DNA of 64,000 nt, from assembly GCA_035289165.1 (NCBI GenBank), contig DATDYA010000008.1:572-64571 (forward strand), in the 5' to 3' direction. The notes under the pieces were generated by a model. The model was not told the origin of the DNA, made no database searches, and worked only from the letters and a program-made list of their open reading frames with translations. This document shows, piece by piece, positions 26,133 through 26,574 of the stretch. The DNA comes from Patescibacteria group bacterium. GTDB taxonomy: Bacteria > Patescibacteriota > Patescibacteriia > Magasanikbacterales > GWA2-37-8. How positions within the stretch are numbered: position 1 is the stretch's first letter; every line of letters starts with the position of its first letter. A program made the position numbers and the translations under genes.

Positions 26133-26574
26133 ATGGAAGACAAAAGACCAAAGGTGGGGGTGGGAGTATTTGTTTTTAAGGATGGGAAAATTCTTTTTGG
26201 ACAGAGAAAAAATACTGGACACGGTGTTGGTTGTTGGAGCCTGCCAGGCGGACATCTGGAGTTTAACGAAGGTGTTGAATCTTGCGCAGAGAGAGAGAGA
26301 GGTAATGGAAGAGGTCGGAATTAAGATAAAAAACATTAGATTGGGCCCGTATACTAATGATATTTTTTCAAAAGACAATAAACACTATATTACTTTGTTT
26401 GTGATGAGCGATTATGATTCTGGAGATGTTAGGAATATGGAGCCAGAAAAGTTAGAAGAATGGCGCTGGGTCGATTGGGACGATCTCCCCAAGCCGCTTT
26501 TTGTGCCAATTCAAAATTTTATTCAGGATGGGCATGATCCTTTTGGTTTTTCTAAAATAGAAAGAAAAAACTGA
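26133..26574 (+). pseudogene. NUDIX hydrolase gene interrupted by a frameshift inside an (AG)7 dinucleotide repeat at 26288-26301
   Basis: ORF 26133..26324 carries the first half of the Nudix box ([17 protein letters not shown]...). ORF 26170..26574, offset by +1 frame, carries the second half ([11 protein letters not shown]). A repeat length of (AG)5 or (AG)8 would restore one reading frame with an intact GX5EX7REUXEEXGU box. Confidence 0.6.

Follow-up and report, generated by a model that had tools for sequence, protein, structure and literature searches.

Is the interrupted Nudix hydrolase gene found at this locus a product of faulty sequencing, a switch that turns an enzyme on and off, or a gene that has really been broken? 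The DNA analysed here is a stretch of 64,000 nucleotides (the window) from a Patescibacteria MAG. In the NCBI annotation the locus appears as two separate CDSs, HLC69503.1 and HLC69504.1, each named as a 'NUDIX domain-containing protein'. The initial annotation had instead read them as one Nudix hydrolase gene frameshifted inside an (AG)7 repeat, and this reading was confirmed by the arrangement of the ORFs and by their match to the profile PF00293.

The AG tract and the interrupted Nudix box

Positions 26288-26301 read AGAGAGAGAGAGAG, that is (AG)7, flanked by tcttgcgc on the 5' side and gtaatgg on the 3' side. The tract divides the Nudix box, with GX5EX7RE in frame 0 and UXEEXGU in the +1 frame. 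The last eight residues of the first ORF (RGNGRGRN) are out of frame, and the +1 frame is open from 26170 to 26574, the C-terminal remainder containing no internal stops. The features of the locus are listed in Table 1.

Table 1. Features of the interrupted Nudix locus and its surroundings, in window coordinates
Feature	Position	Strand	Remarks
SpoU methylase gene	24936-25400	+	upstream of the Nudix gene
Conserved 241-aa hypothetical gene	25404-26129	+	between SpoU and the Nudix gene
N-terminal Nudix hydrolase fragment, ORF of 63 aa, frame 0	26133..26324	+	ATG at 26133, stop at 26324; Nudix profile positions 2-51; HLC69503.1
(AG)7 tract, frameshift site	26288..26301	+	native (AG)5 + 4 nt
C-terminal remainder, +1 frame	26305..26574	+	89 aa from ATG 26305; Nudix profile positions 54-126; HLC69504.1
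Hairpin, intrinsic-terminator-like palindrome	26565..26593	none	A6-CTGACCAT-N-ATGGTCAG-T6, 13 pairs
PfkB-family kinase gene, convergent	26607-27635	-	same terminator as the Nudix gene
Other Nudix genes	6865-7350 and 57920-58393		in addition to the interrupted gene

In silico reduction of the tract to (AG)5 gave a protein of 145 aa with a perfect GX5EX7REUXEEXGU box, as the initial annotation had predicted, and the same (AG)5 is present in the closest intact ortholog. Since the box is perfect only after this repair, the gene is a disrupted member of the Nudix superfamily. The (AG)5 product scored 80.3 bits against PF00293 (E=1.7e-22), compared with 71.4 bits for (AG)8 and 64.8 bits for (AG)2, while the two unrepaired fragments scored 35.0 and 29.4 bits, both above the cut-off of 21.1 bits. 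Tracts of n=2, 5 and 8 are in frame and those of n=6 and 7 are out of frame. It had also been stated that (AG)8 restores the frame with a one-residue insertion; the frame is indeed restored, but two residues (E-R) are inserted. Because the X7 spacing is invariant and (AG)5 lies two steps away, the only in-frame state that can be reached from (AG)7 in one step is this two-residue insertion variant.

The tract is the only dinucleotide repeat of at least 5 units in the window. Its length is beyond chance: in 100 dinucleotide-preserving shuffles of the window, the expectation for (AG)6 was already 0.00.

Sequence matches of the repaired protein to the PDB entries of Arabidopsis NUDX1 (6fl4, E=5.7e-34), human NUDT15 (5bon, E=2.3e-29) and a rose geranyl-diphosphate phosphohydrolase (6ypb, E=1.5e-27) covered residues 5-137, end to end and with no indel in the Nudix box. 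These matches place the gene in the NUDT15/AtNUDX1-like subfamily of Nudix hydrolases, and its repaired product would be a small house-cleaning nucleotide diphosphatase; the JGI label '8-oxo-dGTP diphosphatase' is an automatic name. RE and VMEE of the catalytic helix are parted by the split, at profile positions 51 and 54. As the split cuts this helix, the two fragments should be inactive.

The SpoU gene, the 241-aa gene and the Nudix gene are separated by gaps of 3 nt each, and from this spacing they probably form an operon that ends with the Nudix gene, so the frameshift would have no polar effect. The 241-aa protein has no Pfam match, is strongly conserved and lies between SpoU and the Nudix gene in all three lineages that carry an AG tract at this site. 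The initial annotation had argued from a strong bidirectional terminator that the gene is normally expressed. The terminator was found as described, but it is shared with the convergent PfkB gene, the two genes facing each other across it, and it therefore says little about expression of the Nudix gene.

Elsewhere in the window, three consecutive very large ORFs of 1,141, 1,294 and 1,260 aa occupy 9554-20822 on the plus strand. The region 24162-24835 is locally GC-richer and has long ORFs overlapping on both strands (183 aa on the plus strand and 208 aa on the minus strand); the public gene calls place there a minus-strand gene of 198 aa with no Pfam match.

Occurrence and length variation of the (AG)7 allele

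The exact 63-aa product was found on 15 contigs from at least seven assemblies or runs. As this product can arise from (AG)7 only, all 15 contigs carry (AG)7. Seven of the loci were fetched from ENA, Logan and JGI; their DNA matched the window at 99.8-100% identity over as much as 6.2 kb, with (AG)7 in every one. At least one of the source runs, SRR2090153, is an aquifer metagenome. The sampled population appears to be clonal and to have been sequenced repeatedly, and the (AG)7 allele appears fixed in it.

The initial annotation had allowed that the tract might be a sequencing or assembly error, the true genome being in frame. Dinucleotide repeats are prone to indels, and two assemblies do break their contigs at the tract (L001 in one, L005 with L014 in the other). 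Against this, different assemblers working on different runs arrived at the same (AG)7 in 15 cases, and consensus error is thereby effectively excluded. The in-frame product was absent from a collection of about 15 billion proteins. A frameshift at the same site arose independently in a second lineage, where it is present on four contigs; the three fetched came from three sources. No broken genes were found elsewhere in the 64-kb window, which is about 93% coding with intact ORFs of up to 1,294 aa, so that the frameshift is an isolated lesion in a good assembly. We therefore consider an artefact highly improbable and treat the frameshift as a real mutation.

Length heterogeneity was seen in one place. 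In JGI sample 3300025317, contig L005 has (AG)7 and ends at window position 26415, and contig L014 has (AG)6, begins at 26278 and is otherwise identical over 2.6 kb. The pair looks like a length variant left unresolved in the assembly graph. As L014 starts 10 nt before the tract, its (AG)6 path may rest on few reads, and PCR stutter is possible. L014 is the only contig with (AG)6, from one sample, all other contigs of the window lineage having (AG)7; it is a weak indication of ongoing slippage in the population.

Exact look-ups for other alleles were made in the same set of about 15 billion proteins. Neither the products that tracts of n=2, 3, 4, 5, 6, 8, 9, 10 and 11 would give nor the repaired protein of the second frameshifted lineage (L009-L011) was present. 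In the 15 and 4 contigs and this protein collection together, neither frameshifted lineage showed an ON allele; the ON state was seen only in a sister lineage (L012/L013, 84% protein identity). A variable-gap pattern built on the flanks had no match in a metagenome contig set which evidently lacks most of the JGI contigs found otherwise, and a downstream-flank pattern matched only L014 in the same set.

One further contig, L001 (ERZ4903137 k141_1473428), joins the window at 26289, inside the tract, and carries at its tip (positions 1-40) the sequence (GA)10TAAGGAGATGAGGAAATGAT, which is absent from the window. The tip could be chimeric or a rearranged variant. Forty nucleotides at a contig end are uninterpretable, and it was set aside as a candidate structural variant.

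Orthologs, age of the breaks and history of the locus

An AG tract is present here in three lineages: that of the window, L009-L011 and L012/L013. The closest intact ortholog, in L012/L013, is 138 aa long with 84% amino acid identity and reads TGCGC(AG)5GTGATGG, in frame. Lineage L009-L011 reads TGTGC(AG)5AAGTAATGG, which at the same spot moves the frame by +2 into the other wrong one and leaves pieces of 56 and 85 aa with a stop-start overlap (TAATG); removal of one AG unit restores A-E-R-E(GAA)-V-M. The (AG)7 of the window lineage is a +4 shift. The same site has thus been hit in two lineages, and from these comparisons the tract has expanded independently at least twice.

Among orthologous loci from GTDB species representatives, 79 of 80 were intact in one frame. 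Seventy-seven of the intact orthologs fit the strict box pattern, and two differ only later in the motif. Tract length in relatives had been proposed as a check on the frameshift: (AG)5 is present in the closest intact ortholog and (AG)5AA in a second relative, and the other 78 surveyed have no tract of at least 5 units, their X7 spacing being fixed. AG runs at the site are mostly of 1-3 units among the 80 orthologs and do not exceed 4 apart from the window's two closest relatives. As the length present in the closest intact ortholog, (AG)5 is the native in-frame length. It encodes A-E-R-E of the Nudix box as gcA GAG AGA GAG, and the tract is best read as a clade-specific by-product of these codons. 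A 55-aa N-terminal query for truncated products in further lineages gave nine candidates, none broken at the AG tract; the short ones were cut by contig ends or frameshifted elsewhere.

The entries of the two closest relatives, L015 (CAZEEW010000001.1) and L075 (CAZRZQ010000038.1), are titled 'uncultured Gammaproteobacteria bacterium' and are probably mislabelled; the proteins of the window itself carry the label Patescibacteria, and the next-closest orthologs come from Patescibacteria and DPANN archaea. The Nudix subfamily (L016-L094) is 55-65% identical across Patescibacteria, DPANN archaea (Woesearchaeota, Nanoarchaeota and Aenigmatarchaeota) and Desulfobacterales, which suggests transfer of the subfamily between domains.

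Selection was estimated by the Nei-Gojobori method from the window and L009, for the Nudix gene and its syntenic neighbours. In the Nudix gene, dN/dS was 0.024 upstream and 0.032 downstream of the tract (pS about 0.6 in both parts), with 12 nonsynonymous differences at 316 nonsynonymous sites and a whole-gene dS of about 1.25. For the intact neighbours, dN/dS was 0.026 in the 241-aa gene and 0.057 in SpoU, dS being about 0.44 in each. The C-terminal remainder is thus still under purifying selection, and no native-frame stop codon has been gained downstream of the tract in either the window or L009. Since dN/dS is about 0.03 on either side of the tract, as in the intact neighbours, both breaks are recent; calculated from these figures, the neutral time of both lineages combined is less than about 5% of their divergence.

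A history of the Nudix gene separate from that of its neighbours, by recombination or replacement, is implied by its dS of about 1.25, against about 0.44 in the flanks. Nucleotide identity between the window (24936-26574) and L009 (1-3475) is 81.4% in the Nudix gene and 93.3% in the flanking SpoU and 241-aa genes. Between the 241-aa gene and the Nudix gene lies a slot that is empty in the window (26129-26133), holds two HD/HD_3-domain genes in L009 (1601-2999) and holds a second Nudix gene of 145 aa in L012 (2553-2990). It looks like a variable islet of nucleotide house-cleaning genes, and because the genes beside the Nudix gene differ in all three lineages, the locus is an accessory and fluid one. 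An rve-family integrase lies just downstream in L009.

Origin of the break and comparison with known systems

The explanation that we favour, and regard as probable, is replication slippage at an accidental (AG)n hotspot, giving a knockout that is recent, fixed in the population and in principle reversible, in a gene that is dispensable. In a small clade of Patescibacteria, the codons gcA-GAG-AGA-GAG chosen for A-E-R-E would have created an (AG)5 run. Slipped-strand mispairing, which we infer as the mechanism, would then have lengthened it to (AG)7 in the window lineage, probably stepwise via (AG)6, and would have added one unit in L009-L011. The resulting break truncates a NUDT15/AtNUDX1-like enzyme in the middle of its catalytic helix and would turn the enzyme off. 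Its loss may be tolerated because the gene is accessory, being last in its operon, accompanied by two other Nudix genes in the window and set in variable gene content. Further slippage could reverse the break, which would make this a de facto unstable locus. One observation fits slippage of this kind less closely: two of the three tract-bearing lineages are broken yet undecayed, somewhat more than rare irreversible loss predicts. This fits equally well with frequent reversible switching or with residual expression.

The initial annotation had proposed a phase-variation switch, that is, a contingency locus at which slippage in the AG tract turns the enzyme ON and OFF, selection keeps both tract and ORF, and the sampled populations happen to be OFF. 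As at phase-variable loci, the tract lies inside the ORF and changes in unit number alter the frame, by the mechanism known for the CT repeats of Helicobacter pylori oipA (PMC10564699). Two related lineages are OFF with different lengths while a third is ON, the two halves of the ORF are under strong purifying selection (dN/dS about 0.03), and (AG)6 and (AG)7 occur in one sample. The proposal is nevertheless unlikely. ON and OFF alleles of a contingency locus should occur in the same lineage, and here the search described above returned no ON allele for either OFF lineage. The tract should lie where a change of length is tolerated and be kept beyond coding need; here it lies in the catalytic helix, whose length is invariant in 79 intact orthologs, and codon choice alone explains it. 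The native (AG)5 is two steps from (AG)7, by way of another OFF state, no tract of at least 5 units occurs in orthologs outside the three-lineage clade, and the 64 kb contain no further repeats of this kind. The target, moreover, is a cytoplasmic house-cleaning enzyme and not a surface or restriction-modification gene. Selection as a switch is thus possible but unsupported, and none of the evidence requires it.

A working CPR contingency locus by which a natural aquifer population reversibly switches a NUDT15/NUDX1-like enzyme that sanitises the nucleotide pool is, in our judgement, somewhat less likely still. If true, such a switch may affect mutation rate or nucleotide salvage. In the literature searched, we found neither phase variation described for Patescibacteria nor a Nudix enzyme subject to it; if ON and OFF subpopulations are real, this would be the first contingency-type locus reported in Patescibacteria, with a switchable nucleotide-sanitising enzyme.

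Recoding, in which RNA polymerase slippage or a 2-nt ribosomal shift yields some full-length enzyme from a leaky gene, seems quite improbable. It would account for the undecayed ORF (dN/dS about 0.03 on either side of the tract) in two frameshifted lineages, and within an AG repeat a move of 2 nt lets the codons AGA and GAG re-pair perfectly. Deletions of 2 nt in RNA at GAGAG motifs have been described at low frequency for eukaryotic RNA polymerase II (PMC3091519). The window and L009 lineages, however, need opposite corrections (+4/-2 versus +2/-1) and the sister lineage is in frame, so there is no conserved frameshift. A -2 shift or a +AG slip in the window would give the two-residue insertion variant and not the native protein. 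RNA downstream of the tract has no stable structure (z +0.6 to +1.9), and with these z-scores above 0 recoding was rejected as the main explanation. The combination of a conserved shift, a slippery site and a stimulatory element by which programmed frameshifting is recognised was not found at this locus. We are not aware of any bacterium that relies on dinucleotide transcriptional slippage for expression.

A functional enzyme put together from separately translated N- and C-terminal fragments is barely credible: both halves are conserved, the ATG at 26305 follows a purine-rich tract that could act as a ribosome-binding site, and in L009 the two ORFs overlap in TAATG, stop codon with start codon, but the candidate suggested by this overlap was rejected, as the cut falls within the catalytic REUXEE helix, between RE and VMEE, none of the 79 other orthologs surveyed is split, and to our knowledge such a two-piece Nudix enzyme has no precedent.

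The finding is mainly of practical use, for annotation: HLC69503.1 and HLC69504.1 should be regarded as one gene with a real frameshift and not as an assembly error. The locus also offers a clean natural example in which the ordinary codons GCA-GAG-AGA-GAG create a slippage hotspot inside a catalytic motif; in an uncultured, streamlined bacterium, this hotspot has led to independent breaks of the gene in two closely related lineages.

Among known systems, oipA and sabA of H. pylori undergo slipped-strand phase variation at CT repeats (PMC10564699), and the locus resembles them in having an AG/CT tract in an ORF, with length changes that shift the frame and lengths that vary between related lineages. 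In oipA and sabA, however, the tracts occupy the 5' signal-peptide region, which tolerates changes of length; ON and OFF alleles are found side by side, both within a strain and from strain to strain, and the products are surface proteins. Here, by contrast, the tract lies in a catalytic motif with one native length, the affected lineages showed no ON allele, and the product is a cytoplasmic enzyme. Molecular misreading at GAGAG (PMC3091519) shares the motif and the 2-nt length changes, but acts at the RNA level, at low frequency and with eukaryotic polymerase II, whereas the change here is in the DNA of every assembly. Experiments on a hypermutable hotspot of a flagellar gene of Paenibacillus demonstrated both reversion and a fitness trade-off (PMC9941203). 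Unlike in that case, reversibility here is deduced from sequence; as in that case, a short repeat in an ordinary gene gives rise to frequent, potentially reversible loss-of-function alleles. What is seen at this locus, a frameshift at a simple-sequence repeat, is a familiar type of event in a new setting.
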